DNA of 64,000 nucleotides, from NCBI GenBank assembly GCA_963828345.1, contig CAWHEZ010000035.1:7540-71539 (forward strand), given 5' to 3'. Under the pieces are notes generated by a model. That model saw nothing but the letters and a program-made list of their open reading frames with translations. It was not told the origin of the DNA and ran no database searches. The position numbers and the translations under genes are program-made. Positions 11,663-27,319 of this stretch are shown piece after piece; position 1 is the first letter of the stretch, and every line of letters begins with the position of its first letter. The DNA is from an uncultured delta proteobacterium. Lineage in GTDB: Bacteria; Desulfobacterota; Desulfobacteria; Desulfobacterales; SpSt-501.

Positions 11663-11726
11663 GAAATCCAATGGATCGAGTCTATATCGGCCGGCAGCCC
11701 AGTGCGGGCCGCCGTCGGGAGGCGAG

Positions 11727-12029
11727 GTGATCGGTCTGAGCCCAAGAGGACTGTTTCTGGCGCTGGCCCTGCTCGCGCTGAGCGGGTGTGCGTCCTTTCA
11801 GACGTACCGGGTGGCGGAAACCGAAGAGAAGCTCGTGGCCAACTGCACCTACATCGACACGGTCACCGCGTTCTCCGACATGGGACCCTTCCAGGTGCAC
11901 CCCATCCTGGTCGACGACGCCCGCGACAAGGTTCTGCGCCGGGCCGAAATGCTGAACGCCACCCATGTCGTCTGGGTGGGGGATTACTACTTCGGCGGCG
12001 CTGCCTTGGCCTATTACTGCTGGGAGTGA
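11727..12029 (+). CDS. DUF4156-like lipoprotein
   Basis: In ORF 11607..12029. GTG at 11727 follows GGGAGG. Lipobox LALLALSGC. The C-terminus resembles DUF4156. Confidence 0.65.
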   Translation: MIGLSPRGLFLALALLALSGCASFQTYRVAETEEKLVANCTYIDTVTAFSDMGPFQVHPILVDDARDKVLRRAEMLNATHVVWVGDYYFGGAALAYYCWE

Positions 12030-12105
12030 TCGGCCCCCGAACGATCCAAGAAACAGCCGCCTGATCGGTCGCTGCACGGTTCCAACCACCACACCGGGAG
12101 AGCGA

Positions 12106-12288
12106 ATGGATTTTATGGGTCTCGACACAGCGAACAGCGGGAAACGCAAGATGTACAACACGACGCTCGACTCGGATCTCATCCGGAAGATCAAGATACT
12201 TGCGGCCCAACTCGAAAAACGGCAGAACGACCTGCTGGAGGAAGCCATCAAAGACCTGCTCAAGAAATACAACCTCCAGGTCGGCTGA
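12106..12288 (+). CDS. Ribbon-helix-helix (CopG-like) protein
   Basis: In ORF 11965..12288. ATG at 12106 follows GGGAGAG. KRKMYNTTLDSDLIRKIKILAAQLEKRQNDLLEEAIKDLLKKY fits a beta-strand plus two helices RHH pattern. Confidence 0.6.
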   Translation: MDFMGLDTANSGKRKMYNTTLDSDLIRKIKILAAQLEKRQNDLLEEAIKDLLKKYNLQVG

Positions 12289-12302
12289 GGGCCCGTTGCG
12301 CC

Positions 12303-12920
12303 ATGGCGAACGAAAACCACGAAAACCGGACCTCCGTGCGGTTCACCCATGATTCCACGATCTCTCTCGAGCAGAACGAGGTCGGGATCCTGCACGAGGC
12401 CCGCATGTTCAACTACTCCTCGTCGGGACTCTACTTCGAGTCGGATTTTTACCTCATTCCCGGCACCGAGATCTTCATCGGTTTGAAGAGCTCGCCGTTC
12501 ACGTCCGCGCCCGGGGTTTACGAGTGCTATCGTTCGGCCATCAAATGGCGCAAGTACCTTGAGAACTCGGTCTTCGACTACGGGTACGGGGTCGAACTCA
12601 AGGGCAAGGCCCCGTCCCGGGGCGAGCCTCACCGCGCCCGCGCCCCGCGCCGCCACCCGCGGGCGTCCTGCACCATCCCCGCCCTGCTGCAGAACCAGAG
12701 CGAGAAGGCACGGGGCGTCATCCACAACGTGAGCCACGGCGGGGTGTTCGTCATGTGCGGCGGGACGTTCGCCGCCGGGCAGCGCCTGCAGCTCACCATC
12801 CCGCTGCGCAAACGGCAGAAGCTGATCACGCGCTTCGGCGAGGTGGTCTGGTCCGACCCCAACGGGCTCGGGATCAAGTTCGACGCCCAGGCCGCGGGCG
12901 AAACTCCCGACCCATCGTAA
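12303..12920 (+). CDS. Tandem PilZ-domain protein (putative c-di-GMP receptor)
   Basis: ORF track entry. Two RxxxR...(D/N)xSxxG signatures: RTSVR...NYSSSG and RRHPR...NVSHGG. Confidence 0.75.
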   Translation: MANENHENRTSVRFTHDSTISLEQNEVGILHEARMFNYSSSGLYFESDFYLIPGTEIFIGLKSSPFTSAPGVYECYRSAIKWRKYLENSVFDYGYGVELKGKAPSRGEPHRARAPRRHPRASCTIPALLQNQSEKARGVIHNVSHGGVFVMCGGTFAAGQRLQLTIPLRKRQKLITRFGEVVWSDPNGLGIKFDAQAAGETPDPS

Positions 12921-13008
12921 TCCAGCCTGCGTTCTTGACGGCCCATCCGGCACGGGTTAGCTTCACGTCGGTTCGACATCAAGCGACCCAACCGAACGGA
13001 GGACCGCT

Positions 13009-13626
13009 GTGACCACCCTGGAAATCTTCTCCGACTTCATCTGACCGTGGTGCTACTTCATTACCGTCGGTAGTGACCGGTTGACCCGCGAGTTCGAGAT
13101 CGACGTGCGCTGGGTGGCCTTCCCGCTGCACCCGGAAATCCCGCCCGAGGGCGTCACCCTCGAACGGCTGTTCGAGGGCCGCGGCATCGACATCGCTGCG
13201 GTGCTGAGCCGTCTCGAATCGGCCGCCCGCCAGTTCGGACTGCCGTTCGGGACGCGCCGCATGAGCTTCAATTCGCGCCGCGCCCAGGAGGGCGCCAAGT
13301 GGGCCGAGTCGCTGGGCCAGGCCGATGCCTACCACCGCGCGGTGTTCCAGGCCTACTTCGTGGACGGGCGGAACCTGCACGAGATGGAGACCCTCGTGCA
13401 GGCGGCCGAGTCGATTGGACTGGATGGCGCGGGCCTGAGCGAGGCCGTCCACACTCACGCCTACAAGGCCGCGGTCGACCAGGACTGGATGCGCTCGCAC
13501 CGGCTGGGGATCAGCGCCGTGCCCGCATTTCGGTTGCATGAAGAGGTGCGGGTCGGGGCGCAGCCCTACGAGCAGCTGGCCGCGTTCGCGTCGGCGCACC
13601 GTGTTCCCCGGCGCGCGGCCGGCTGA
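13009..13626 (+). CDS. DsbA/FrnE-like thiol:disulfide oxidoreductase with in-frame TGA (candidate selenocysteine) in a UPWC motif
   Basis: GTG at 13009 has GGAGG 6 nt upstream. Translation VTTLEIFSDFI-TGA(13042-13044)-PWCYFITVGSDRL runs in frame into ORF 13081..13626, which is DsbA family. The TGA sits where homologues have the first Cys of CPWC. Confidence 0.7.
13058..13076 (+). promoter_or_regulatory. Candidate bacterial SECIS hairpin
   Basis: 8-bp stem 13058-13065 / 13069-13076 (one G-U pair) with apical GUC. It begins 13 nt after the TGA. Confidence 0.45.
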
Positions 13627-13656
13627 CATCCGCATGAACGCCGGCGCCGCGGTCAT

Positions 13657-15528
13657 TCACGATGCGCAGGGGAGGGGAGAGCGGACCGGGACCGCCAGGC
13701 TGAGGAACTGGCCGTTTTCCTCGAACATCAGCCGCTGGGCGACCATGCCTCCGACGAAGGCGGAAACCCGGTCGGCGGACACCGACGGAAAGCGGGCGAC
13801 AATGTGCCGCAGCGGCCGGTGGTGGTCGCAGTAGAGGTAGATGGCGCGCGCGGTGCCTTCGAGCCGATGCGTGGCGGCATCGCCGGTGCGGCGGCGCTCG
13901 CGCAGGATCAGGAACTCCCCCCCGTCGCGGCAGGACAGGATCGGTTCGGGATCCGGGCCGCGCTGCAAGAGGTCGTAGCTGCGGGACCATGCGCGCAGCG
14001 CCGCCCGGACCGGCCGCCAGAGCCTTTCCTGGGCGGCCCCCGCGCCGCGGCCGGCTTGGACCACCAGGGGCAGGCGGCGAAAAACCGCGGCCGGAAAGAG
14101 GTGCGCCCAGTTGGGGTGGTTGCCGACCCGCTCCAGGCCGAAGGCGCCGGGGTCCGACCAGACCGGGCTGCCCAGGCCCAGCCAGAACCTGACCGGCTTC
14201 GGCGGGCGATAGGCGCGGGCGAACTCGATCGCATGCAGCGTTTCGCGCACGTCCTCGGCATCGCTCGCCGGAAAGTTGAGGATCAGGTTGGCGAGGTTGA
14301 CGATCCCCAGCTGTTCGCAGCGCTTCATGATCTCGAGGTTCTGAATGGCCGTGGTGCCCTTGTGGAGCTTGCGCAGCAGACGCGTGCTCAGGGCTTCGAC
14401 CCCGACCTGCACCCTGCGCATCCCCGCGGCGCGCATCCAGGACAGCTCCTCCGCGGGCGTGGTCGCGCGCAGCTCGGCGAAGAGCGACAGGTCCCGCGGC
14501 AGGCCTGCCAGCCCGCGCAGGATCCCGGCCGTTTCCGTCTTCGGCAGGACGTTGTCCACCACGGCCACCGACAGCGTCCGGTAGCGCGCGGTGAGCTGCT
14601 CGACCTCCGCGACCGCCCGGCGGGCGGACTTAAACCGGTATCCTCGCCACTGCAGGTTGAGATTGCAGAACCGGCAGCCGGTGCCGGACCCGGCGCCGCG
14701 TTTCCACCAGCACCCGCGCGAAAACTCCACGGGCAGGGTCGGGAAGAAACGGTGGTCCTGGGCGAACCCGGACAGGAGGGCGAAGTAGTCATCGTAGTCC
14801 GGAAGAGGCAGGCGGTCGAGATTCTCCAACTGGAAGAGGCGATCCCCGGCGGGGGCGGAATCTCTCGCGCCGCGCGTGAAGATGCCGCCCGCCGGCGGGA
14901 TGTCGGCCAGGCCGCGGCCTTCGATCACGTGGTGCTGGACGAGGTGCGCCAGGGGGAGCTCCCCCTCGCCGACGACCACGGCGTCCAGGTGCGGGAAGAG
15001 CTCGAGTGCCGTCGCGGCCGAGTGCGAGGTGATGGCGGGTCCGCCGATCACGACGGTCAGGTGCGGGTGCGCCTCCTTCAGGCGGCGAATCAGGTACAGG
15101 CAGGCGGTCAGCTGGCACAGGACGCTCGAAAACCCGACGAGACGGACATTGTCCCAGGCGACGGAGTCGGTCCACGCATCCATGGCGGCCTTGACCTGCG
15201 CGGTCAGCGCGCCGAAGGCGACCCCTTTCAGCGCGGATGCACCGACCGACTCGCGCCGGAACAGCCGCGCCAGGCGTTCAGTCCGTTCGGGGAAGAGCAG
15301 AGCGGCGCCGATCGATTCGGCCGGCCACGTGCGTTCCGAGACGGCGTGGTAGACGCGGTAGCCGATCGATGCGGCCACCCGCAGGTAAAGCGGGTGCGCG
15401 GCCACCTCGACTGCGGGGAACCGGGAGCGCACGAAGGCCTTGAGCGCCCCCAGCTGGATGGATGGACGCGTGTAAAGGGGCCAGGGCGGGGACACCAGCG
15501 CGATGGATGGCGGTGTGGGAAGTGCCAC
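13657..15528 (-). CDS. B12-binding-domain radical SAM protein, RiPP-maturation rSAM family-like
   Basis: ORF track entry, 623 aa, GTG start. The N-terminus IALVSPPWPLYTRPSIQLGALKAF and the unusual SRGCWWKRGAGSGTGCRFCNL cluster resemble the bacteriocin-maturation radical SAM protein 1 family. Confidence 0.7.
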   Translation of the reverse strand: MALPTPPSIALVSPPWPLYTRPSIQLGALKAFVRSRFPAVEVAAHPLYLRVAASIGYRVYHAVSERTWPAESIGAALLFPERTERLARLFRRESVGASALKGVAFGALTAQVKAAMDAWTDSVAWDNVRLVGFSSVLCQLTACLYLIRRLKEAHPHLTVVIGGPAITSHSAATALELFPHLDAVVVGEGELPLAHLVQHHVIEGRGLADIPPAGGIFTRGARDSAPAGDRLFQLENLDRLPLPDYDDYFALLSGFAQDHRFFPTLPVEFSRGCWWKRGAGSGTGCRFCNLNLQWRGYRFKSARRAVAEVEQLTARYRTLSVAVVDNVLPKTETAGILRGLAGLPRDLSLFAELRATTPAEELSWMRAAGMRRVQVGVEALSTRLLRKLHKGTTAIQNLEIMKRCEQLGIVNLANLILNFPASDAEDVRETLHAIEFARAYRPPKPVRFWLGLGSPVWSDPGAFGLERVGNHPNWAHLFPAAVFRRLPLVVQAGRGAGAAQERLWRPVRAALRAWSRSYDLLQRGPDPEPILSCRDGGEFLILRERRRTGDAATHRLEGTARAIYLYCDHHRPLRHIVARFPSVSADRVSAFVGGMVAQRLMFEENGQFLSLAVPVRSPLPCAS

Positions 15529-15660
15529 GTAGACTGCAGCCTCATAGAGTGGGTCTTCTGTGGGAGCGGCTTTCCAGCCGCGACGATCGAAGCGGAACGC
15601 CTCTCCGACAAAACCAAAACCGACTGGCGGATAACCTGAGGCCGGGCGTCATGGTCTGCG

Positions 15661-15719
15661 AAACACCCAAACACCAAAATACCCAAACACCAGACACGAA
15701 ACACCCAACACCAGACACT
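15661..15719. repeat. Tandem array of about eight 7-8 nt AAACACC-type units
   Basis: aaacaccc aaacacc aaaataccc aaacacc agacacg aaacaccc aacacc agacac, in the divergent rSAM/pyrD intergenic region. Confidence 0.8.
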
Positions 15720-15826
15720 TCCAGTTAGAGTATCACCGCATCCGGCCGCGCTGCAAGCGGGTTTGCGCCGTCCGGAGGCCGGGTGCCCGCCTTGACTTGG
15801 AGGGCGGCTGTGGTAAGTAGGTCCGC

Positions 15827-16753
15827 ATGTCGACCGCTCCCCCCCACCTGGGCGTGACCCTCGCCGGCTTGAAACTCAACAACCCGGTCATGACCGCTTC
15901 CGGGACCTTCGGTTACGCGCGCGAGTTCGAATCGTTGATGGACCTCAACCGCCTCGGGGCCATCGTCGTAAAGGGTCTGGCGCTCAAACCGGTCAAGGGC
16001 AACCCGCCGCCGCGCATCGTCGAAACCGCCTGCGGGATGCTCAACGCCATCGGTCTGGAAAACGTGGGCGTCGACGCGTTCGCGGCCGACAAGATGCCCT
16101 TCCTGCGCACGCTCACCCCGCCGGTCATCGCCAACATCTACGGAACGAGCGTCGAGGAGTACGCCGCACTGGCCGAGCGATTGGACGGGATCGACGGGGT
16201 GGCGGCCGTGGAGGTGAACATCTCCTGCCCCAACGTGAAGGCGGGCGGGGTGGTCTTCGGGGTCGACCCGGTGGCCGCCGAACGGGTCGTCCGGGCGGTG
16301 CGGGAGCGCACCCGCAAACCGGTCATCGTAAAGCTCTCCCCGAACGTCACGGACATCACCGTGATCGCCCGCAGCGCCGAGGCGGGGGGCGCGGACGCGC
16401 TCTCCCTGATCAACACGATCACCGGCATGGCGATCGACATCGAGACGCGGCGCCCCCGACTGGCCAACATCACGGGCGGGCTGTCGGGTCCGGCCATCAA
16501 GCCCGTCGCCTTGAGGATGGTCTGGCAGGTGGCACGCACGGCCCGGGTGCCGGTCATCGGCATCGGGGGGATCATGCGGGGGGAGGACGCCGTCGAGTTC
16601 CTCCTCGCCGGCGCGACCGCCGTCCAGGTCGGGACCGCCAATTTCGTGAACCCGCGCGCCGCGCTCGATATCGCCGCCGGGATCGAGGCCTACCTCAGCC
16701 GCCACGGGATCGCCGACGTCAACGAGATCGTCGGCAAGCTGCAGGTCGATTGA
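15827..16753 (+). CDS. pyrD: Dihydroorotate dehydrogenase, class 1B catalytic subunit
   Basis: ORF track entry. [16 protein letters not shown]...NISCPNV...GGI motifs. Confidence 0.9.
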
Positions 16754-16891: not shown

Positions 16892-18433
16892 TCACAGCGA
16901 CGCCGACGACTCCTCCAGCGGGTTCCGTTTCAGGTACTCGAGCCGGTTCAAGCCGTTGACGTACGCCTTGGCGCTCGCGGTGATGATGTCGGCATCTGCC
17001 CCCTTGCCGAGGGCCAACAGTCCGTTCTCGCTCAGACGCACCGTCACCTCCCCCATGGCATCCGTGCCGCCGGTGAGGGCGCTCACCGAGAAGCGCAGCA
17101 GCTCGGAGGCCGTGCCCGTGAGCTTGGCGATGGTGTTGAAGGCGGCGTCGATCGGCCCGTTGCCGTAGCCGGCATCCTGCGCGGGCCGGCCGTTGATGTT
17201 CAGGCGCACGCTCGCCATGGGCAGGACGGTCGTGCCGGCCGTGACGTGCAGGTAGTCGAGCTTGAAGACGTCCGCGGTCCGCAGGATGCCCTCGGTCACG
17301 ATGGCCTCCAGGTCCTCGTCCACCACGTGTTTCTTCTTGTCCGCCAGTTCCTTGAACTTGGTGAACACCAGATTCAGCTCATCGTCCGAGAGGTCGTAGC
17401 CCAGGTCCTTCAGGTGGGAGCGCAGGGCGTGGCGGCCGGAGTGCTTGCCCAGGACGAGCTTGGTGGCGCTGAGGCCGATCGTCTCCGGTCGCATGATCTC
17501 GTAGGTCATCGGGTTTTTGAGGATCCCGTCCTGGTGGATGCCGGCCTCGTGCGCGAAGGCGTTGGCCCCGACGATCGCCTTGTTCGCCTGCACGAGCATG
17601 CCCGTGACCATGCTGACCAGCCGGCTGGTGGGGTGGATGAACTCGGTGCGAATGGAGGTCTTCGCAGAGAGGTAGTCGCCGCGCGTGTGCAGCGCCATGA
17701 CCACCTCCTCGAGCGAGGTGTTGCCCGCGCGCTCGCCGATGCCGTTGATCGTGACTTCGGCCTGGCGCGCGCCCGCCTGGACGGCCGCGAGCGTGTTGGA
17801 GGTGGCCAGGCCCAGGTCGTTGTGGCAGTGGACGCTCAGCACGGCCTTGCCGATGTTGGGCGTGTGGCTGCGGAGGTAGCGGACCAGCTCGGCAAACTCC
17901 TGGGGGATGGCGTAGCCGACCGTGTCGGGCAGGTTCACCGTGGTCGCGCCCGCTTCGATGGCGGCCTCGAAGATGCGGCAGAGGTAGTCCCGGTCGCTGC
18001 GCGAACCGTCCTCGGCCGAAAACTCCACGTTCGGGGTGAGGGTGCGCGCATAGCGCACTGCCTCCACGGCGGCCCGCACCACCTCGTCGCGGTTCATCTT
18101 GAGTTTGTACTGCAGGTGGATGTCCGAGGTCGCGATGAAGGTGTGGATGCGCGGGCTCGCGGCGTGCTGCACGGCCTTCCAGGCGCGGTCGATGTCGTGG
18201 CGCGTGGCGCGCGCCAGAGCGGCCACCTCGGCCCGCTTCAGGCGGCCGGCGATCTGGCTGACGGCCTCCAGGTCGCCGTCCGAGGCCGCCGGGAACCCCG
18301 CCTCGATCACGTCGACCCCGAGCTTTTCCAGCTGCACCGCCAGCCGCAGTTTCTCCGCCGAGTTCATGCTGGCCCCGGGGCTCTGCTCCCCGTCTCTCAG
18401 GGTGGTGTCGAAGATGATCACGCGTTCGGTCAT
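16892..18433 (-). CDS. leuA: 2-isopropylmalate synthase
   Basis: ORF track entry. MTERVIIFDTTLRDGEQSPGASM..., full length 513 aa. Confidence 0.93.
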   Translation of the reverse strand: MTERVIIFDTTLRDGEQSPGASMNSAEKLRLAVQLEKLGVDVIEAGFPAASDGDLEAVSQIAGRLKRAEVAALARATRHDIDRAWKAVQHAASPRIHTFIATSDIHLQYKLKMNRDEVVRAAVEAVRYARTLTPNVEFSAEDGSRSDRDYLCRIFEAAIEAGATTVNLPDTVGYAIPQEFAELVRYLRSHTPNIGKAVLSVHCHNDLGLATSNTLAAVQAGARQAEVTINGIGERAGNTSLEEVVMALHTRGDYLSAKTSIRTEFIHPTSRLVSMVTGMLVQANKAIVGANAFAHEAGIHQDGILKNPMTYEIMRPETIGLSATKLVLGKHSGRHALRSHLKDLGYDLSDDELNLVFTKFKELADKKKHVVDEDLEAIVTEGILRTADVFKLDYLHVTAGTTVLPMASVRLNINGRPAQDAGYGNGPIDAAFNTIAKLTGTASELLRFSVSALTGGTDAMGEVTVRLSENGLLALGKGADADIITASAKAYVNGLNRLEYLKRNPLEESSASL

Positions 18434-18442
18434 GGTGGACTC

Positions 18443-20053
18443 CTATCGGGTGGTGGGGGATTCGGAATTGGCGCCGGAGACCGGCTCTGCGCCGCGGCTG
18501 AGCTTGTAGTGGAAGCTGTCCGCCAGCGCCTGCCAGCTGGCTTCGATGATGTCCTCGGACACGCCGATCGTGCTCCAGACGTGGTCCGGGTCGCGCGAGT
18601 CGATCAGCACGCGCACGCGCGCGGCGGTGCCGCGGCTGCCGTCGATCACGCGCACCTTGAAATCCGTCAGGCGCATGTCGCCCAGGTCCGGGTAGAAGCG
18701 GCCGAGCGCCTTGCGCAGGGCGTTGTCCAGCGCGCTGACGGGCCCGTAGCCCTCGGCCGCCGTGATTTCACTCCGGCCGTCGACCGCGATTTTGACCGTG
18801 GCGTGCGCCCGGCAGGGCTGATCCTTGTCCTTCTCGATCGTGACACGGAACGACTCGAGTTCGAAGAGCGGCCGGAAGGTCTCGGTCAGCTTCTGGATGA
18901 GCACCTTGAAGGAGCCGTCCGCCGCATCGAACTGGTAGCCGTCCTGCTCCATCTGCTTGATCTCGGAGACGATGCGGCGGCTGTCGGCGTCGGGCAACTC
19001 GATGTCCAGGCCGAGCTCGCGCGCCTTGTACTCCACGTTGCTGCGGCCCGAGAGGTCGGACACGAGCACCCGGCGGTGGTTGCCCACGCGTTCGGGGGCC
19101 ATGTGCTCGTACGCTTCCGGGTGTTTCATGATGGCGCTCACATGCACGCCGCCCTTGTGGGCGAAGGCGCTGCGCCCCACGAACGGCCGGCTGTGCAGCG
19201 GCACCATGTTGGCCGTCTCGCCCACGAAGCGCGAGAGGGACTTGAGCTTTTTCAGGTTCGCCTCGGACATGCAGGCCCGGCCCATCTTGAGCTGCAGGAC
19301 CGGGGCGACCGCCGTGAGGTCGGTGTTGCCGCAACGCTCCCCGTAGCCGTTGACCGTCCCGTGCACCATGACGGCGCCGGCCTGCACCGCGGCGATGGAG
19401 TTGGCCAGCGCCAGGCCGCAGTCGTTGTGAGCGTGGATGCCCAGGCGCACCCCGCTGCCCAGGTGGGCGCGCACGCGGGCCATGACCTCCGGGACGTCGA
19501 AGGGCAGGGTGCCCCCGTTCGTGTCGCACAGGACCACGGTGTCCGCCCCGGCCTGCGCGGCTGCGGCGATGGTCGCCAAGGCGTACCCGGGATCGGCCCG
19601 GAACCCGTCAAAGAAGTGCTCGGCGTCGTAGATGACGTCGCGCCCGTTTTGCCGCAGATGGCCGACCGTGTCCCGGATCATCGCGACGTTTTCGTCGAGT
19701 CGGGTGCCCATGACGGCCGTGACGTGAAAGTCCCAGCTCTTGCCGAAAACGGTCACCAGCGAGGTGCCGCAGTCGAGGAGTGCCCGCAGGTGCGGGTCGT
19801 TTTCGGCCGCCCGTCCCGGCTTGCGGGTGCAGCCGAAGGCGGCCAGGCGGGCGTGGGCGAAGACCGCCTTCCGGGCGAGCTCGAAGAACTGCAGGTCCTT
19901 GGGATTGGACCCCGGCCAGCCCCCTTCGATGAAGTGGATGCCGATGTCGTCCAGGCGCAGGGCGATCTTGAGCTTTTCCTCGGCGCTGAACGAGATGCCC
20001 TCGCCCTGGCTGCCGTCGCGCAGGGTGGTGTCGTAGAGAAGGACAGGGTCCAC
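18443..20053 (-). CDS. cimA: (R)-citramalate synthase
   Basis: ORF track entry. LLYDTTLRDGSQGEGISFSAEEKLKIALRLDDIGIHFIEGGWPGSNPKD, 536 aa, CimA-type LeuA paralogue. Confidence 0.85.
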   Translation of the reverse strand: MDPVLLYDTTLRDGSQGEGISFSAEEKLKIALRLDDIGIHFIEGGWPGSNPKDLQFFELARKAVFAHARLAAFGCTRKPGRAAENDPHLRALLDCGTSLVTVFGKSWDFHVTAVMGTRLDENVAMIRDTVGHLRQNGRDVIYDAEHFFDGFRADPGYALATIAAAAQAGADTVVLCDTNGGTLPFDVPEVMARVRAHLGSGVRLGIHAHNDCGLALANSIAAVQAGAVMVHGTVNGYGERCGNTDLTAVAPVLQLKMGRACMSEANLKKLKSLSRFVGETANMVPLHSRPFVGRSAFAHKGGVHVSAIMKHPEAYEHMAPERVGNHRRVLVSDLSGRSNVEYKARELGLDIELPDADSRRIVSEIKQMEQDGYQFDAADGSFKVLIQKLTETFRPLFELESFRVTIEKDKDQPCRAHATVKIAVDGRSEITAAEGYGPVSALDNALRKALGRFYPDLGDMRLTDFKVRVIDGSRGTAARVRVLIDSRDPDHVWSTIGVSEDIIEASWQALADSFHYKLSRGAEPVSGANSESPTTR

Positions 20054-20122
20054 GGGGCCTCCTGGCTCAGTTGGATGCTGGAATGCGCACGGGAGGATGC
20101 CTCGGCATGCTCGACCGGAATG

Positions 20123-20208
20123 CAGGGCTCGAGGAGCCAGGGTTCAAGGGGCCGAGCGAAGGATCGAGCATCGAGATCTTTACCCTCGAGCCCCGTGGAC
20201 CCTTTCCC
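20123..20208. repeat. Degenerate copy of the GGGTTCA-type hairpin element
   Basis: cagGGCTCGAGGagccaGGGTTCAAGGGGccgag ... taCCCTCGAGCCCcgtgGACCCtttccc, in the ilvC-cimA spacer. Confidence 0.55.
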
Positions 20209-21257
20209 TATTTGCGATTTTCCGGACGCAGCGAGCGCACGGCCGCACCGGCCCGCCACATCTCGGAGTCGTGCATCACGGCCAGCTCCTTATCGAGCTT
20301 CTCGCGGTAGTCGGGGGTGCTGTTGGCCGACAGGACCCGCCGGGTTTCCTCGCCGCTGCGCACGCGCTGGTAGAGTTCCGCGTAGAGCGGGGCGACGGCG
20401 TCGCGGAAGCGCGGGGCCCAGTCCAGCGCGCCGCGCTGGGCCGTGGTGGAGCAGTTGGCGAACATCCAGTCCATGCCCTTGGCGCCGACCAGCCCGATGA
20501 GGCTCTGGGTCAGCTCCTCGACCGTTTCGTTGAAGGCCTCGCTCGGGGTGTGGCCGTGTTTGCGCAACAGGGTGTACTGCGCCTCCATGACGCCGGCCAG
20601 CGCCCCCATGAGGATCCCGCGCTCGCCCGTCAGGTCGCTCACGACCTCGCGTTCGAAGGTGGTCGGGAAGAGGTAGCCGGAGCCGATGGCGATCCCGAGA
20701 GCCAGTGCCCGTTCGCGGGCCTTGCCGGTGTAGTCCTGAAAGACGGCAAAGCTCGCGTTGATGCCGCTGCCGTCCAGGAAATTGGTGCGCACGGTGCGGC
20801 CGGAGCCCTTGGGCGCTACGAGCACGACGTCGATGTTCGCGGGCGGGACGATGCCCGTCTGGTCCTTGTAGACGATGCCGAAGCCGTGCGAGAAGTACAG
20901 GGTGTCACCCGCCTTGAGACAGGCCTTGATCTTGGGCCACATGGCCACCTGGCCCGCGTCGGAGAGCAGGTACTGGACCACGGTCGCCCGCTCGGCGGCC
21001 TCCTCGGGCGAGAAGAGGGTCTCGCCCGGCACGAACCCGTCCGCGACCGCCCGGTCCCAGGACGCGCCGCCCTTGCGCTGACCCACGATCACGCGCAGCC
21101 CGTTGTCGCGCATGTTGAGCGCCTGCCCGGGGCCCTGCACGCCGTAGCCCACGACCGCCACGGTGTCGTTCTGCAGCACCTGCCGCGCCTGCTGCAGGGG
21201 GAATTCGTCTTCCGTCACCACCTCTTCCATCGTTCCGCCGAAATCGAACTGAGCCAT
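20208..21257 (-). CDS. ilvC: Ketol-acid reductoisomerase
   Basis: ORF track entry. VAVVGYGVQGPGQALNMRDNGL..., 349 aa. Confidence 0.93.
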   Translation of the reverse strand: MAQFDFGGTMEEVVTEDEFPLQQARQVLQNDTVAVVGYGVQGPGQALNMRDNGLRVIVGQRKGGASWDRAVADGFVPGETLFSPEEAAERATVVQYLLSDAGQVAMWPKIKACLKAGDTLYFSHGFGIVYKDQTGIVPPANIDVVLVAPKGSGRTVRTNFLDGSGINASFAVFQDYTGKARERALALGIAIGSGYLFPTTFEREVVSDLTGERGILMGALAGVMEAQYTLLRKHGHTPSEAFNETVEELTQSLIGLVGAKGMDWMFANCSTTAQRGALDWAPRFRDAVAPLYAELYQRVRSGEETRRVLSANSTPDYREKLDKELAVMHDSEMWRAGAAVRSLRPENRK

Positions 21258-21318
21258 GATGCGTTTCCTCTCTTTCCGCTGTTGAGTGTTTCGGTTGAAC
21301 CTACCGTACTTCCAATTT

Positions 21319-21419
21319 CCAGGGTTCCAGGGTTCGAGGGTTCGAGGGGTCGAGTGAAGGATGAAGGCCGTCTTTATATTTTCCTTGAACCCTCGACCCC
21401 TTGAACCCTTGAACCCCTG
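21319..21419. repeat. GGGTTCA-type heptamer arrays arranged as a hairpin, with G-quadruplex motifs on both strands
   Basis: The left arm is ccaGGGttccaGGGttcgaGGGttcgaGGGGtcgag. The right arm is ccttgaaCCCtcgaCCCCttgaaCCCttgaaCCCCtg. 21338-21354 pairs with 21392-21408 (17 bp, one mismatch). Confidence 0.8.
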
Positions 21420-21422
21420 CTT

Positions 21423-21911
21423 TCACGTCGGCTCCCGGATCAGGCCGATCGGCCCGGTGCGCGCCAGCTTCTTGATCCCGTAGGGCTGCAGCAGGTTCAG
21501 GACCGTCTGGACCTGTTCCTGCTCGCCGGAAATCTCGACGATGACGTGGGTCTGGCCCGCGTCGGCAATGCGACCGCCGGCGAGATCCACGACCCGCAGG
21601 ACCTCGGAGCGCTGCTCCGGCCGAATCTGCACGCAGGCGAGCGCCATCTCGCGCCGCACACAGCGCGGGCCGTTGAGGCTGCGCAGCTTGATCACGTTCA
21701 CCAGCTTGCGCAGCTGCTTCTCGATCTGCTCGACGACCGGCGGGTTGGCCTGGGTGACGATGGTGATGCGCGAAACCTTCGGGTCGTTGGTCGGGCTGCC
21801 GCAGATGCTTTCGATGTTGAACCCCTTGCCGCTGAACAGGCCCGCCACGCGCGAGGTCACCCCGGGTTCGTTGTCCACCAGCATCGTCATCACGTGCTTT
21901 TCTTCCGTCAT
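21423..21911 (-). CDS. ilvN: Acetolactate synthase small (regulatory) subunit
   Basis: C-terminal 162 codons of ORF 21423..22583 starting MTEEKHVMTMLVDNEPGVTSRVAGLFSGKGFNIESI (ACT domain). ATG at 21911. Confidence 0.9.
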   Translation of the reverse strand: MTEEKHVMTMLVDNEPGVTSRVAGLFSGKGFNIESICGSPTNDPKVSRITIVTQANPPVVEQIEKQLRKLVNVIKLRSLNGPRCVRREMALACVQIRPEQRSEVLRVVDLAGGRIADAGQTHVIVEISGEQEQVQTVLNLLQPYGIKKLARTGPIGLIREPT

Positions 21912-21931
21912 GCGCGCTTCCTCCTCTGAAT

Positions 21932-23617
<1,686 letters not shown>

Positions 23618-23644
23618 GGGTCGTCTCCTCGTCGTGTCACGCGC

Positions 23645-23680
23645 AAAAAAAAACCGTTACCGCCTCGGGGCTGGTAACGG
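23645..23680 (-). terminator. Attenuator terminator in the ilvB leader
   Basis: Minus strand: CCGTTACC-a-GCC ccga GGC GGTAACGG followed by nine T, about 27 nt upstream of the ilvB ATG. Confidence 0.7.
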
Positions 23681-23710
23681 ATTTTATTCTGCTCGGTTTT
23701 TTCGGGTGCG

Positions 23711-23806
23711 TTAGACCGCTACCAACCCCTTCGCATCATCGTCGAGGAGGCCGACGATGATGAGACTAATGAGGACGAGGTTGATAATGGCGGCTTTCGG
23801 GTTCAT
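23711..23806 (-). CDS. Putative ilv leader peptide (31 aa, 15 Ile/Leu/Val)
   Basis: Hand translation: MNPKAAIINLVLISLIIVGLLDDDAKGLVAV. The last codons (GGTAGCGG) can pair with the 5' arm of the terminator. Confidence 0.6.
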   Translation of the reverse strand: MNPKAAIINLVLISLIIVGLLDDDAKGLVAV

Positions 23807-23887
23807 CAGGTTCCAGTGGTTAAACGTTATCTTTAAAATTTCCCTAACAGCCGGACATGGGGAAGTCAAGCGATTTATTGCCTGCGG

Positions 23888-26179
23888 CTACTCCACCTGT
23901 TCCTTGAACCCGCAGTCCGGGTTGAGGCAGGAGTGCAGAGTGCCCTGCCGCTTGGTGACGCGCTCGACCAGGATCTTGGCGCCGCAGGCCGGGCAGTCGC
24001 GCGCGACCGGCTTGTCCCAGGTGGCGAACGTGCAGTCCGGGTAGCGGTTGCAGCCGTAGAAGGTTTTCCCGCGCTTGGAGGTCTTCTCGAGCAGCTCGCC
24101 CGTGCAGCCGTCCTGCGGGCATTTGACGCCGGTGCTCTTGCCGTTGCCGTTCAGCGTCCGCGACTGGGTGTTCCGGCACTCGGGGTAGCCGCTGCAGGCG
24201 AAGAAGTCGCCGAAGGGGCCGCGCTTGAGCACCATGGGCCGGCCGCATTTCTCGCAGCTCTTGTCGGTCGGTTCGTCGGCCAGCGGCTCCACCGGCTGGA
24301 TGTTGCCTTTTTCGTCGCGCGTGTAGTCCCGGGAGTACTTGCACTCCGGGTAGCCGCTGCAGGCGAGGAAGTGACCGTTCTTGCCGATCTTGACGTGCAG
24401 GGTGTGGCTGCACTCCGGACACTTGAGCTCTGTCGCGACGCCGACCCCCTTGATGCTGACCATCCCCTCGGCCGCCCGGTCGAGGTCCTTGCGGAACGGC
24501 GTGTAGAACCGGGTGAGCAGATCGAGCGAGTTGGCCTTTTCGGCTTCCACCTGGTCGAGGTTTTCCTCCATGCGGGCCGTGAACTCGACGTCGAAGATGT
24601 CCGGAAAGCTCATGACGAGCAGGTCGTTCACGATGAACCCGAGCTCGCTCGGCCGGAAGTAGCCCTTGACCCAGTCCACGTAGCCCTTGTCGCGGATGGT
24701 CGACAGGATCGCGGCGTAGGTGCTCGGGCGCCCGATGCCGTTTTCCTCGAGCTCCTTCACGAGCGAGGCCTCCGAGAAGCGCGGAGGGGGCTGCGTGAAG
24801 TGCTGCTTCGGCTCGAGGCGGTGCAGCGTGAGGCGCTGCCCCTCCTTCAGCTCCGGGAGCTGCTCGCGGGCCTTGTCGCCGTTGCCGTCCCCGTCGTCCT
24901 CTTCGGCGCGGTAGAGGGCCATGAACCCCGGGAACTTGACCGACGACCCGCTGGCGGTGAAGACGTAGGGCCCGGCGGCGATCGAGGCGGAGACCTGGTC
25001 GACGAGCGCCTCCTGCATCTGGGAGGCGACGAACCGCTGCCAGACGAGCTGGTAGAGGGCCAGCTGGTCGCGGCTGAGATGGGGCGCCACCAGCTCGGGC
25101 GTGTTCGCAACCGAGGTCGGCCGGATGGCCTCGTGCGCGTCCTGGGCCTGCTTGGAGTTCTTGAACACCCGCGGGCGGTCCAGGGCGTAGTCGCGGCCGA
25201 ACCGCTCGACGATGAGCTCCTGCGCCTCGACCGCGGCGGTCTCCGCGATGCGCGTGGAGTCCGTGCGCATGTAGGTGATCAGCCCGACCGGCTCCCCGGG
25301 CCCCAGGTCGATGCCCTCGTAGAGCTGCTGGGCAAGCATCATCGTCTTCTTGGCGGTGAAGCGCAGTTTGCGGATGGACTCCTGCTGGAGCTTGCTCGTC
25401 GTGAACGGCGGGGCCGGGTTCTTTTTGACGGTGCGTTTCTGCACCTTATCGACCCGGAACGCCTCTCCCTGGAGGACGGAGAGGATGTGCTGCGCGGCCG
25501 TCTCGTCCGGGATGGCGAGCTTGTCCTTGCCCTTCTTGACCAGCTTGGCCGCGAACGGCGGCGGCGAGTCGGCTTCGAGGTGGGCGGTGATCGACCAGTA
25601 CTCCTGCGGCACGAAGATCTGGATGGCGCGCTCGCGTTCGCAGATGATGCGCAGGGCGACGCTCTGCACGCGACCGGCGCTCAACCCGCCCTTGACCTTG
25701 CGCCACAGCAGCGGCGACACCTGGTAGCCCACCAGGCGGTCGAGGATGCGGCGGGCCTGCTGCGCCTCGAATTTGTTGCGGTCCAGCTCCTGGGGCCGGG
25801 TCATGGCCTGCCGGATGGCATCCTTGGTGAGCTCGTGGAACAGGACGCGGTGAAAGCGCCGCCCCTTCTTCTTGAGCACGTCGGCCGTGTGCCAGGCGAT
25901 GGCCTCCCCCTCGCGGTCGGGGTCCGGGGCGAGGTAGACCTCTTCGGCGTCGGCCGCGGCCTGCTTCAGGGCCTGGATCACCTTCTGCTTGCCCGGGATG
26001 ACCGTGTACTTCGGCGCGAAGCCGTCCTCCACGTCGATGCCCATCTCACGTTGGGGCAGGTCCTTGATGTGACCGACCGTGGCCGCCACGTTGTAGTCGT
26101 TGCCGAGGTATTTTTTGATGGTCCGGACCTTGGCCGGAGACTCCACCACCACGAGCGGTTTGGTCATTGCAGGTTTCAT
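23888..26179 (-). CDS. topA: DNA topoisomerase I
   Basis: C-terminal 763 codons of ORF 23888..27319: MKPAMTKPLVVVESPAKVRTIKKYLG..., with several C-terminal Cys4 zinc ribbons. An alternative start is ATG 26167. Confidence 0.92.
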   Translation of the reverse strand: MKPAMTKPLVVVESPAKVRTIKKYLGNDYNVAATVGHIKDLPQREMGIDVEDGFAPKYTVIPGKQKVIQALKQAAADAEEVYLAPDPDREGEAIAWHTADVLKKKGRRFHRVLFHELTKDAIRQAMTRPQELDRNKFEAQQARRILDRLVGYQVSPLLWRKVKGGLSAGRVQSVALRIICERERAIQIFVPQEYWSITAHLEADSPPPFAAKLVKKGKDKLAIPDETAAQHILSVLQGEAFRVDKVQKRTVKKNPAPPFTTSKLQQESIRKLRFTAKKTMMLAQQLYEGIDLGPGEPVGLITYMRTDSTRIAETAAVEAQELIVERFGRDYALDRPRVFKNSKQAQDAHEAIRPTSVANTPELVAPHLSRDQLALYQLVWQRFVASQMQEALVDQVSASIAAGPYVFTASGSSVKFPGFMALYRAEEDDGDGNGDKAREQLPELKEGQRLTLHRLEPKQHFTQPPPRFSEASLVKELEENGIGRPSTYAAILSTIRDKGYVDWVKGYFRPSELGFIVNDLLVMSFPDIFDVEFTARMEENLDQVEAEKANSLDLLTRFYTPFRKDLDRAAEGMVSIKGVGVATELKCPECSHTLHVKIGKNGHFLACSGYPECKYSRDYTRDEKGNIQPVEPLADEPTDKSCEKCGRPMVLKRGPFGDFFACSGYPECRNTQSRTLNGNGKSTGVKCPQDGCTGELLEKTSKRGKTFYGCNRYPDCTFATWDKPVARDCPACGAKILVERVTKRQGTLHSCLNPDCGFKEQVE

Positions 26180-26187
26180 CGCTCCTA

Positions 26188-27319
26188 TCAATCGTGTGCA
26201 TCGGCCTTCCCGTCGGCGGCCGAAAAGAATTTTCCGGGCTGCTGGGTGACGAGGCCTTTTAATTCCAGTTGCAGCAGGATGCCGGACAGGTCCCCGGCAT
26301 CGAGCGACAGGGTGCGCACCAGTTCGTCGATGTGCAAGGGGTAGGGGCCCAGGGCGCCGAGAACGTCGGACTCTTTCGCGGTCAGCGAGGGGTGCGTTTG
26401 CGAGCGGACCGCGCGGGCATCCGGCGGCGCCGCGGCGTACCCGAGCTCGGATAGAATGTCCTGCACGTTTTCGACGAGCTTGGCGCCCTCCTTGATCAGC
26501 GTGTGGGTCCCCGTGCTTTTGAAGGACTGCACGCTTCCGGGCACGGCGAACACCTCGCGGTTCTGCTCGGCCGCCAACCGTGCGGTGATCAGCGAGCCGC
26601 TGTTGCGGGTGGCTTCGACCACCACGGTCCCGAGCGACATCCCGCTGATGATGCGGTTGCGCACCGGGAAGTGGTGCGGTTCGGGGTCGGCGTCGATCGG
26701 GAACTCCGAGACGACGGCTCCCCGCGCGGCGATGCGGTCGAACAGGCGGCGGTGCTGGGGCGGGTAGACCTTCGCGAGGCCGCTGCCCAGCACGGCGACC
26801 GTGCGGCCCCCGCCCGCCAGCGCGCCTTCGTGCGCCGCCGCGTCGATGCCGACCGCCATCCCGCTGACCACCGTGAAGCCGATGGCGGCGAGGTCGGCGC
26901 AGAGTCGGTGGGTCGTGTCTCACCCCGTATGAGGTGGCGTGGCGCGAGCCGACCACCGCGATCGGCCGTTCGAGGCCCTCCAACTCCCCGTGCACATACA
27001 GCATCGGCGGCGGGTCCGGGATCTCCCTGAGCAGCCGGGGGTACGCCGGGTCGCTCAGGGTGACGATCCTGAATCCGTTGCGGCAGGCCCCTTCGATTTC
27101 GGCCCTGCCGGCGTCGGGCGCCCGGTGCGACCGCATGGCGTCCACCGTGCGGCGGTTGATCCCCTCCACGCGTCCGAGCTCGGCCATGGGCGCGCCCAAT
27201 GCGGCCTCGGGGGACCCGAAACGTTCGATCAACCGTTTGAAGAGGTGGTTCCCTACTCCGGGGACGCTCTTCAGCTCGAACCAGGGCAGGAGCTCGTCCA
27301 CGTGGTCGCGCGCGTTCAA
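26188..27319 (-). pseudogene. dprA: DNA-processing protein DprA (Smf), reading frame broken near 26918-26923
   Basis: TTG at 27319 has GGGGAGG upstream. The N-terminus ...IAVVGSRHATSYG is in one frame. The continuation DTTHRLCADLAAIGFTVVSGMAVGIDAAAHEGAL... is in ORF 26188..26871. Confidence 0.8.

Follow-up and report, generated by a model that had tools for sequence, protein, structure and literature searches.

What does the short leader in front of the ilvB operon do in an uncultured delta proteobacterium of the Desulfobacterales, sulfate-reducer type, and could it sense the amino acids whose synthesis the operon serves? The stretch analyzed here, 64,000 nucleotides of contig CAWHEZ010000035.1 (hereafter the window), carries ilvB on its minus strand. 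A first-pass annotation, made from the letters alone, placed a leader-peptide transcription attenuator between topA and ilvB, and both flanking genes are matched by protein family models (TIGR01051 for the type I topoisomerase gene topA upstream of the leader, TIGR00118 for ilvB). Our analysis leads us to conclude that the leader is very probably a classical ribosome-mediated (leader-peptide) transcription attenuator of ilvB-ilvN-ilvC-cimA-leuA that senses charged Ile, Leu and Val tRNA. The element is a new family of a well-known kind of regulator, uncatalogued in Rfam, Pfam and NCBIfam.

The leader open reading frame (ORF) of 31 codons that had been proposed, with 15 residues that are Ile, Leu or Val (ILV), is present on the minus strand (Table 1). 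Its peptide contains 5 Ile, 6 Leu and 4 Val, and the ILV run extends over codons 7-21. The six frames of the window hold 202 ATG-initiated ORFs of 20-60 codons, of which this one is the richest in ILV (fraction 0.48 vs. a mean of 0.13 with a standard deviation of 0.086); the ILV content of the operon's own proteins is 22.6%. The same ORF is called by Prodigal-type gene calling on a near-identical ENA contig. We regard it as a short, translatable ORF ahead of the operon's first gene, with its translation predicted. Codon choice within it is atypical: CUG and GUG are used at none of the ten Leu and Val codons, compared with 57% and 51% in the operon genes, while AUU is used at two of the five Ile codons, compared with 5%. 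G+C content is 49% locally and 66% across the window. The codon choice is probably imposed by the RNA helices, or possibly reflects selection for particular tRNA isoacceptors.

Analysis of the leader RNA revealed four mutually complementary segments, regions 1-4. The terminator hairpin with its T9 tail, described in the first-pass annotation, lies between the leader ORF and ilvB and consists of CCGTTACC (23680-23673), A, GCC, the loop ccga, GGC and GGTAACGG (23661-23654), followed by T9 (23653-23645). Its GC-rich stem has 11 bp with one bulge ahead of the U9 tract, and the stretch folds at -25.6 kcal/mol (z-score, z = -5.3). A simple terminator scan did not list this hairpin, probably because the bulged A splits the stem so that no gapless stem fits the loop limit. 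The motif GGTAGCGG, proposed as complementary to the terminator arm, is found at 23723-23716, but the pairing comprises 14 bp and not 8: the antiterminator is formed by GGGGUUGGUAGCGG (23729-23716) and CCGUUACCAGCCCC (23680-23667), with 12 Watson-Crick and 2 G-U pairs. Region 3 is common to antiterminator and terminator, and the two helices are mutually exclusive. The proposed ilvB ribosome-binding site, GAGGAG, is likewise in place. All four elements of the earlier list were found; the list lacked region 1, the inner hairpin, the promoter and the full length of the antiterminator.

Between regions 1 and 2 lies an inner hairpin in which Ile-Ile-Val-Gly codons pair with Asp-Asp-Asp codons, folding at -19.3 kcal/mol (z -4.5). 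It is a candidate for a pause hairpin like that of the trp leader. The pairing explains the odd Asp-Asp-Asp stretch in an otherwise hydrophobic peptide and, judged from the sequence, the non-ILV residues (DDD and C-x-E) are dictated by hairpin complementarity. Helix 1:2, which encloses the inner hairpin, has a 3-nt bulge in the window lineage. The fold of the whole leader (minus strand, 23620-23830) has z = -4.45, and none of 200 shuffled sequences folds as well.

Conservation and covariation among related loci

ilvB loci were taken from one genome per species and from metagenomes, and 70 of them were scanned upstream by script. An ILV-rich ATG-ORF occurs together with an ilvB-proximal terminator in 13 loci (L002, L003, L004, L005, L006, L010, L012, L014, L025, L082, L083, L103 and L112), the remaining loci having at most one of the two. 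The arrangement in these 13 is the same throughout: an ILV-rich ORF of 27-34 codons, a CCGTTAnC...GnTAACGG hairpin and then T7-T10. A covariance model, R1, built from 14 sequences (alignment A2), matches five loci outside its training set, namely L009 (108.6 bits), L008 (105.6), L011 (78.0), L017 (74.2) and L007 (73.4). There the element is located about 1.8 kb upstream of ilvB and in front of ilvD, a gene whose product starts like dihydroxy-acid dehydratase (MKSD..GIERAPHRSLFKA); thus, irrespective of which of ilvB and ilvD is the first gene, the element keeps its place at the operon head. Each of the five shows the 1:2, 2:3 and 3:4 complementarities, and the stop codon is inside region 2 or adjoins it.

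The element thus heads the ilv operon in 18 related loci (19 with the near-identical L001) from Desulfobacterales-type genomes and metagenomes. Conservation of the ILV-rich ORF and the terminator had been named in the first-pass annotation as a check; the two are kept together, along with the antiterminator strand, in these 18 loci. Every one of the 18 has an in-frame ATG-to-stop ORF of 27-34 codons, and the leader ORFs of the relatives contain 12-16 ILV codons (40-59% ILV). The hairpin with U7-U10 is kept in all members, L007 and L017 alone having a shorter U6. Between the T-run and the start of the first structural gene there are roughly 17 to 100 nt, depending on the locus. As in the window, topA is directly upstream in L003, L004, L006, L010, L014, L083, L112 and L009; L005, L012, L103, L025 and L007 have another upstream gene, and the element still lies beside ilvB or ilvD.

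Outside this group, R1 gives no match in distant ilvB loci (Solidesulfovibrio, Desulfobulbaceae, Geobacteraceae, Nitrospirota and others) within the flanks searched. The element was also not found in L013, L015, L016 and L084-L087, an absence that is uninformative because ilvB or ilvD is operon-internal or the flank too short. A different class of ILV-rich leader ORF precedes ilvB in two metagenome loci whose IlvB identity is about 61%, L105 (1208-1400, MDQVGLILVVVSVQLLGLLLVLVLRSCPLPGRRRVPV) and L108 (1228-1425, MGQAGSILTVIILQLMGLLLVLVLKGCPLPGRGGDSTSS), followed by GC-rich hairpins (GGCCGUGGGCAG...GCCCACGGCC) and U-rich tails. R1 scores 17.9 bits there at best, which is no match, and these leaders are probably another, unrelated attenuator family.

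The closest sequences are an ENA metagenome contig, L001, which encodes an identical IlvB, and a metagenome-assembled genome named "uncultured delta proteobacterium" with a 99% identical IlvB. Positions 18938-26617 of the window align with L001 at 98.4% identity over 7.7 kb, with 40 gap openings, and the gene calls on L001 split ilvC and shorten topA. Gaps and broken gene calls suggest long-read indel noise, so that homopolymers such as T9 may be one base off.

Base pairing was counted in the MAFFT alignment A2 (14 sequences), which was not fitted to any structure. For helices 1:2 and 3:4 jointly, 90.7% of cells are paired, compared with 27-51% when the partner is slid by 1-3 columns, and 22 cells are changed on both sides, a value reached by none of 500 shuffles. 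Helix 1:2 alone has 86% of cells paired and 5 pairs changed on both sides, and helix 3:4 (region 4) has 98.4% paired, its column pair 141/158 being CG in 6, UA in 6 and GC in 2 sequences. Helix 2:3, the antiterminator, has 95.8% of cells paired vs. 29-55% when slid, with 3 pairs changed on both sides. Compensatory changes are present in all three helices. The seventh base of region 3 is a telling position: it is C, U or G, and the base opposite it in region 4 changes with it to G, A or C (6, 6 and 2 sequences), covarying in 14/14. Its region-2 partner covaries in 12/14 (6 GC and 6 AU), with a mismatch in L005 and L012. A single position thus covaries over regions 2, 3 and 4 (G/A, C/U and G/A, respectively). 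In helix 1:2, A-U is replaced by G-C in three sequences along with an Asn-to-Ser change in the peptide. Unaided, RNAalifold predicts helix 1:2 and the terminator from A2, and an inner hairpin with differing stem sequences occurs in 12 of the 14 (-17 to -25 kcal/mol, z -3 to -6.4).

The nucleotide sequence of region 2, GGGGYUGAUAAUGG, is kept among the relatives irrespective of how it is translated. The leader stop (UGA or UAA) falls inside region 2 in L003, L004, L112, L009, L011, L017 and L007, and in L005, L006, L010 and L012 the segment is read in another frame as G-L-I-M-A with the stop after it. Since the nucleotides are kept whatever frame the stop uses, the constraint acts on the RNA and not on the peptide. 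Together with the differing C-terminal tails and the atypical codon choice, this argues against a functional small protein.

Ribosome position and rival explanations

In the proposed mechanism, transcription would begin about 28 nt upstream of the leader ATG, and a ribosome would translate the 31 codons while RNA polymerase advances. When Ile, Leu or Val is scarce, the ribosome would stall in the ILV run (codons 7-21), covering region 1 and leaving region 2 (23729-23715) free to pair with region 3 (23680-23667) once the latter has emerged; no terminator would form, and transcription would read through into ilvB. When all three are plentiful, the ribosome would reach the stop at 23713-23711 and cover region 2, region 3 would pair with region 4, and transcription would end at the U9 tract. 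In an untranslated leader, regions 1 and 2 would pair, enclosing the inner hairpin, and once more the terminator would form. Actual termination and a read-through response to amino-acid supply are predicted.

The switch was modelled by masking a 28-nt ribosome footprint at each codon and computing pair probabilities on the transcript up to region 4. In the window leader, the antiterminator has a probability of 0.97-1.00 with the A site at codons 1-22, codon 23 gives a mixed outcome, and from codon 24 through the stop the terminator has a probability of 0.99. The switch point lies directly after the last codon of the ILV run (Leu21). Mask states between regions 1 and 2, in which helix 1:2 re-forms in silico, were set aside as probably sterically impossible around a ribosome. 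Masked full-leader equilibrium folds are muddled in several relatives because the terminator wins at equilibrium. The relatives agree when the RNA is cut off at region 3, where the decision falls: a ribosome standing on the stop or the few codons before it covers region 2 and abolishes helix 2:3 in 14/14 sequences. Nascent transcripts ending before region 3 contain helix 1:2 in every minimum free energy (MFE) structure. In these models, then, the position of the ribosome decides which helix forms. The two alternative structures, whose comparison had been suggested as a check, differ by no more than about 5 kcal/mol: once region 4 is complete, the form with 2:3 has -59.2 and the form with 1:2 and 3:4 has -54.5 kcal/mol, and with the U tract and a few more bases added the terminator form is the minimum (-63.2 kcal/mol). 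The ribosome-position logic of the first-pass annotation is accordingly supported on three sides, by joint conservation, compensatory changes and fold switching under the ribosome mask.

Several observations weigh against attenuation by a translating ribosome. The Shine-Dalgarno sequence of the leader is weak (GGA, 23814-23812), with none visible in two relatives, and the -10 hexamer of the candidate promoter is poor by E. coli rules. Free window RNA up to region 4 prefers the antiterminator at equilibrium by the energies given above, so that an untranslated leader would depend on the kinetic order of folding to terminate. For a few relatives (L003 and L025), modelling the full leader at equilibrium yields little antiterminator wherever the ribosome is placed, although it does appear when the model stops at region 3. 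Finally, mutation of the candidate regulatory codons in a look-alike ilvB leader of Streptomyces coelicolor is reported to have left regulation unaffected (PMC1262725).

This last result would also suit a leader RNA that acts as a ligand-, tRNA- or protein-binding switch, be it a riboswitch, a T-box or a CodY/Lrp-type site at the RNA or DNA level, with translation of the ORF irrelevant. A guanosine tetraphosphate (ppGpp) riboswitch controls ilvB in some Firmicutes, the Corynebacterium ilvB-II motif was initially taken as a riboswitch (PMC11109978), and a terminator/antiterminator pair on its own would suit a riboswitch expression platform. We nevertheless consider such a switch very unlikely: no Rfam family matches even at E-values up to 10, none reaches its gathering score window-wide, and the family lacks a conserved, complex aptamer-like core. 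Its members share instead an in-frame, ILV-rich ORF whose stop is locked to region 2, and the predicted fold switches with ribosome position exactly where the ILV run ends. Less likely again is that the hairpin and T-run are a plain topA terminator and the small ORF an unrelated hydrophobic membrane protein or a chance ORF. topA does lie directly upstream in the window and in many relatives, and the hairpin may well stop topA transcripts too; the peptide resembles a transmembrane helix and has weak, sub-threshold Pfam matches to membrane segments. However, the element is retained in the five loci with a different upstream gene (L005, L012, L103, L025 and L007), a promoter-like box between topA and the leader is conserved, and a plain terminator needs no two extra segments that are complementary to, and covary with, its 5′ arm. 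Nor does the peptide behave like a protein product, as its C-terminal part is not conserved where the underlying nucleotides are, across frames, and its DDD and C-x-E residues are set by hairpin complementarity.

The least probable of the three alternatives is an action mainly on translation, through re-initiation—proposed elsewhere as a general role of leader peptides (PMC4833913)—or through pairing of leader codons with the ilvB Shine-Dalgarno sequence. The MFE structure of a long transcript does pair CCUCGUC in the leader codons (23771-23780) with GACGAGG at that site (23625-23634), but the pairing is gone in the 99% relative L002 (CCUCAUC) and was rejected as probably fortuitous. The variable distance between T-run and first gene and the strong hairpin with U tract conserved in all members likewise speak against an action mainly on translation.

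Putative promoter, operon and neighbouring genes

A candidate promoter with an extended -10 element was read upstream of the leader ORF (Table 1), and most relatives have a TTGAC(A/T) box, with TG-n-TA about 17 nt downstream, at 60-70 nt before the leader ATG. A scan with the E. coli consensus missed the candidate because its -10 hexamer is weak. The transcription start and the use of this promoter are putative and read from the sequence. Between 21000 and 26000, the sole sigma-70-like consensus match is ATGAGA-17-GATAAT (23760-23788) on the plus strand, within the leader ORF and antisense to it; the AT-rich ILV codons most likely account for it.

Downstream of the leader, ilvB encodes the large subunit of a biosynthetic acetolactate synthase (TIGR00118, 836 bits). 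Common strand and short gaps suggest that ilvB, ilvN, ilvC, cimA and leuA form one operon. The citramalate synthase gene cimA adjoins leuA, an arrangement that points to isoleucine synthesis via the citramalate route and would fit the Ile codons of the leader. The operon yields precursors of Ile, Leu and Val (cimA for Ile, leuA for Leu), matching the mixed run of ILV codons.

Table 1. Position of the leader elements and operon genes in the window
Feature	Position	Strand	Details
Candidate promoter	23841..23869	minus	-35 TTGACT (23869-23864), 17-nt spacer, TGt extension (23849-23847), -10 TAGGGA (23846-23841); read from sequence
Leader ORF	23711..23806	minus	31 codons + TAA; peptide MNPKAAIINLVLISLIIVGLLDDDAKGLVAV; ATG 23806-23804, TAA 23713-23711
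Region 1 (anti-antiterminator strand)	23777..23794	minus	GCCGC-cau-UAUCAACCUC; codons 5-10 (A-A-I-I-N-L); pairs with region 2
Inner hairpin	23731..23765	minus	CAUCAUCGUCGG (23762-23751), loop CCUCC, UCGACGAUGAUG (23745-23734); 12 bp
Region 2	23715..23729	minus	GGGGUUGGUAGCGG(U); antiterminator 5′ strand; last leader codons, just before stop 23713-23711
Region 3	23667..23680	minus	CCGUUACCAGCCCC; common to antiterminator (with region 2) and terminator (with region 4)
Region 4	23645..23664	minus	GGC-GGUAACGG (23664-23654) + U9 tract (23653-23645); terminator 3′ arm and tail
ilvB with Shine-Dalgarno	21932..23630	minus	GAGGAG 23630-23625, ATG 23617; first structural gene after the predicted attenuator
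Rest of operon (ilvN, ilvC, cimA, leuA)	16892..21929	minus	NCBIfam matches
ilvN	21423-21929 at most	minus	NCBIfam match
ilvC	20208-21257	minus	NCBIfam match
cimA (citramalate synthase)	18443-20053	minus	TIGR00977, 717 bits; adjoins leuA
leuA (2-isopropylmalate synthase)	16892-18433	minus	NCBIfam match

Directly downstream of leuA, also on the minus strand, lies a gene (13657-15528) for a radical S-adenosylmethionine C-methyltransferase of the kind that matures ribosomally synthesized and post-translationally modified peptides (TIGR03975, 369 bits). The minus-strand ORFs flanking it (15725-16705, 12979-13656 and 11682-12953) are without an NCBIfam match. To judge from this gene content, 11682-16705 may be a small peptide natural-product cluster.

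Comparison with known systems

Most of what is known of classical attenuation comes from Gammaproteobacteria, Actinobacteria and a few Firmicutes. The element described here is very probably a multivalent Ile/Leu/Val attenuator with all four segments, kept across Desulfobacterales-type genomes, mostly of uncultured environmental bacteria. In these organisms tRNA charging appears to control branched-chain amino-acid synthesis, including the citramalate route, at the level of the transcript. Understanding of attenuation itself is unchanged by the finding. It does offer a clean teaching case of an RNA structure dictating a peptide, through the Asp-Asp-Asp and Cys-x-Glu codons and a region 2 kept in any frame. 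Alignment A2 and model R1 define a family that can be added to RNA and leader-peptide catalogues, and once it is catalogued, annotation pipelines would stop missing the ORF or naming it a hypothetical protein.

The statement in the first-pass annotation that such elements are not generally annotated in this kind of genome agrees with our searches: there is no Rfam match, and the leader peptides stay below the cut-offs of the enterobacterial leader-peptide models. A permissive Rfam 15 scan of 23400-24100 (E up to 10) gave sX8 at best, with 20.8 bits (gathering score 50), and mir-451, both spurious, and no family (no tRNA, riboswitch or known small RNA) reaches its gathering score in the whole 64-kb window. 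Pfam IlvGEDA_leader (PF08046) aligns with residues 7-18 of the window peptide at 13.5 bits, below its cut-off of 25, and eight other peptides of the family have no match to it; NCBIfam, which holds NF007744 for IlvL, gives no match for the leader peptides. The E. coli IlvL control scores 61.5 (Pfam) and 81.9 bits (NCBIfam). No description of the element in Desulfobacterales was found in the literature, where subscription-journal surveys were outside the scope and an earlier computational mention is possible. PMC545781 (Rodionov et al. 2004) makes no mention of ilvB, leader peptides or T-boxes, and PMC4833913 has no delta-proteobacterial or ilvB content.

The leader of the E. coli tryptophan operon, trpL, has the four-segment logic of 1:2, 2:3 and 3:4 pairing, with the regulatory codons in or next to segment 1 and the stop next to segment 2. 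The Desulfobacterales leader shares this logic, and helix 1:2 forms first in its nascent RNA; it differs in the amino acids sensed and in a helix 1:2 that encloses a strong inner hairpin and, in the window lineage, carries the 3-nt bulge. By annotation, E. coli ilvBN resembles the present locus in having a leader-peptide attenuator (IvbL) directly upstream of a gene for an acetolactate synthase large subunit. IvbL responds to Val and Leu only, whereas the run described here mixes Ile, Leu and Val, and there is no similarity in sequence or structure (L163; R1 6.8 bits, E 0.5).

Among the actinobacteria, the leaders of Corynebacterium ilvBNC and other ilvB genes combine an ILV-rich upstream ORF, an intrinsic terminator (P2) and a complementary antiterminator, with stalling predicted to favour read-through (PMC10272879, PMC11109978, PMC11857589, PMC1262725). 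The ilvB-II motif was found by comparative genomics, as was the family described here, and is reported only in Corynebacterium (PMC11109978). It is a separate, lineage-restricted family, while the Desulfobacterales element has its own CCGUUAnC/GnUAACGG core, a region 1 inside the ILV run and the inner hairpin. Leader-peptide control of ilvB has been described in Staphylococcus aureus as well (PMC5794164).

The closest analogue in design is the leader IlvL of the E. coli ilvGMEDA (ilvXGMEDA) operon, which has 32 codons with 15 ILV (MTALLRVISLVVISVVVIIIPPCGAALGRGKA) compared with 31 and 15 here, senses Ile, Leu and Val in the same multivalent manner, and is likewise followed by a GC-rich hairpin and a U run. 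In ilvGMEDA the alternative helices are arranged as protector, preemptor and terminator. Strings common to the Desulfobacterales and E. coli peptides are I-S-L-V and, in L004, I-I-(I/V)-P-C. R1 gives E. coli K-12 ilvL (L162, 815-979) a weak full-length match of 30.9 bits, far below the 73-152 bits of family members and with many non-canonical pairs in both helices. The terminator sequences are unrelated, and the operon here is ilvB-N-C-cimA-leuA or ilvD-ilvB-..., in another phylum. The resemblance under R1 is noteworthy without being evidence of homology, and could be convergence or a distant common origin. Near-equal length and ILV count, the common strings and the 30.9-bit match of ilvL (6.8 for ivbL) raise the idea that the Desulfobacterales and enterobacterial ilvL attenuators share ancestry, by ancient descent or by transfer with the ilv genes; we consider it unlikely. 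If true, it would make this a leader-peptide attenuator conserved across phyla.

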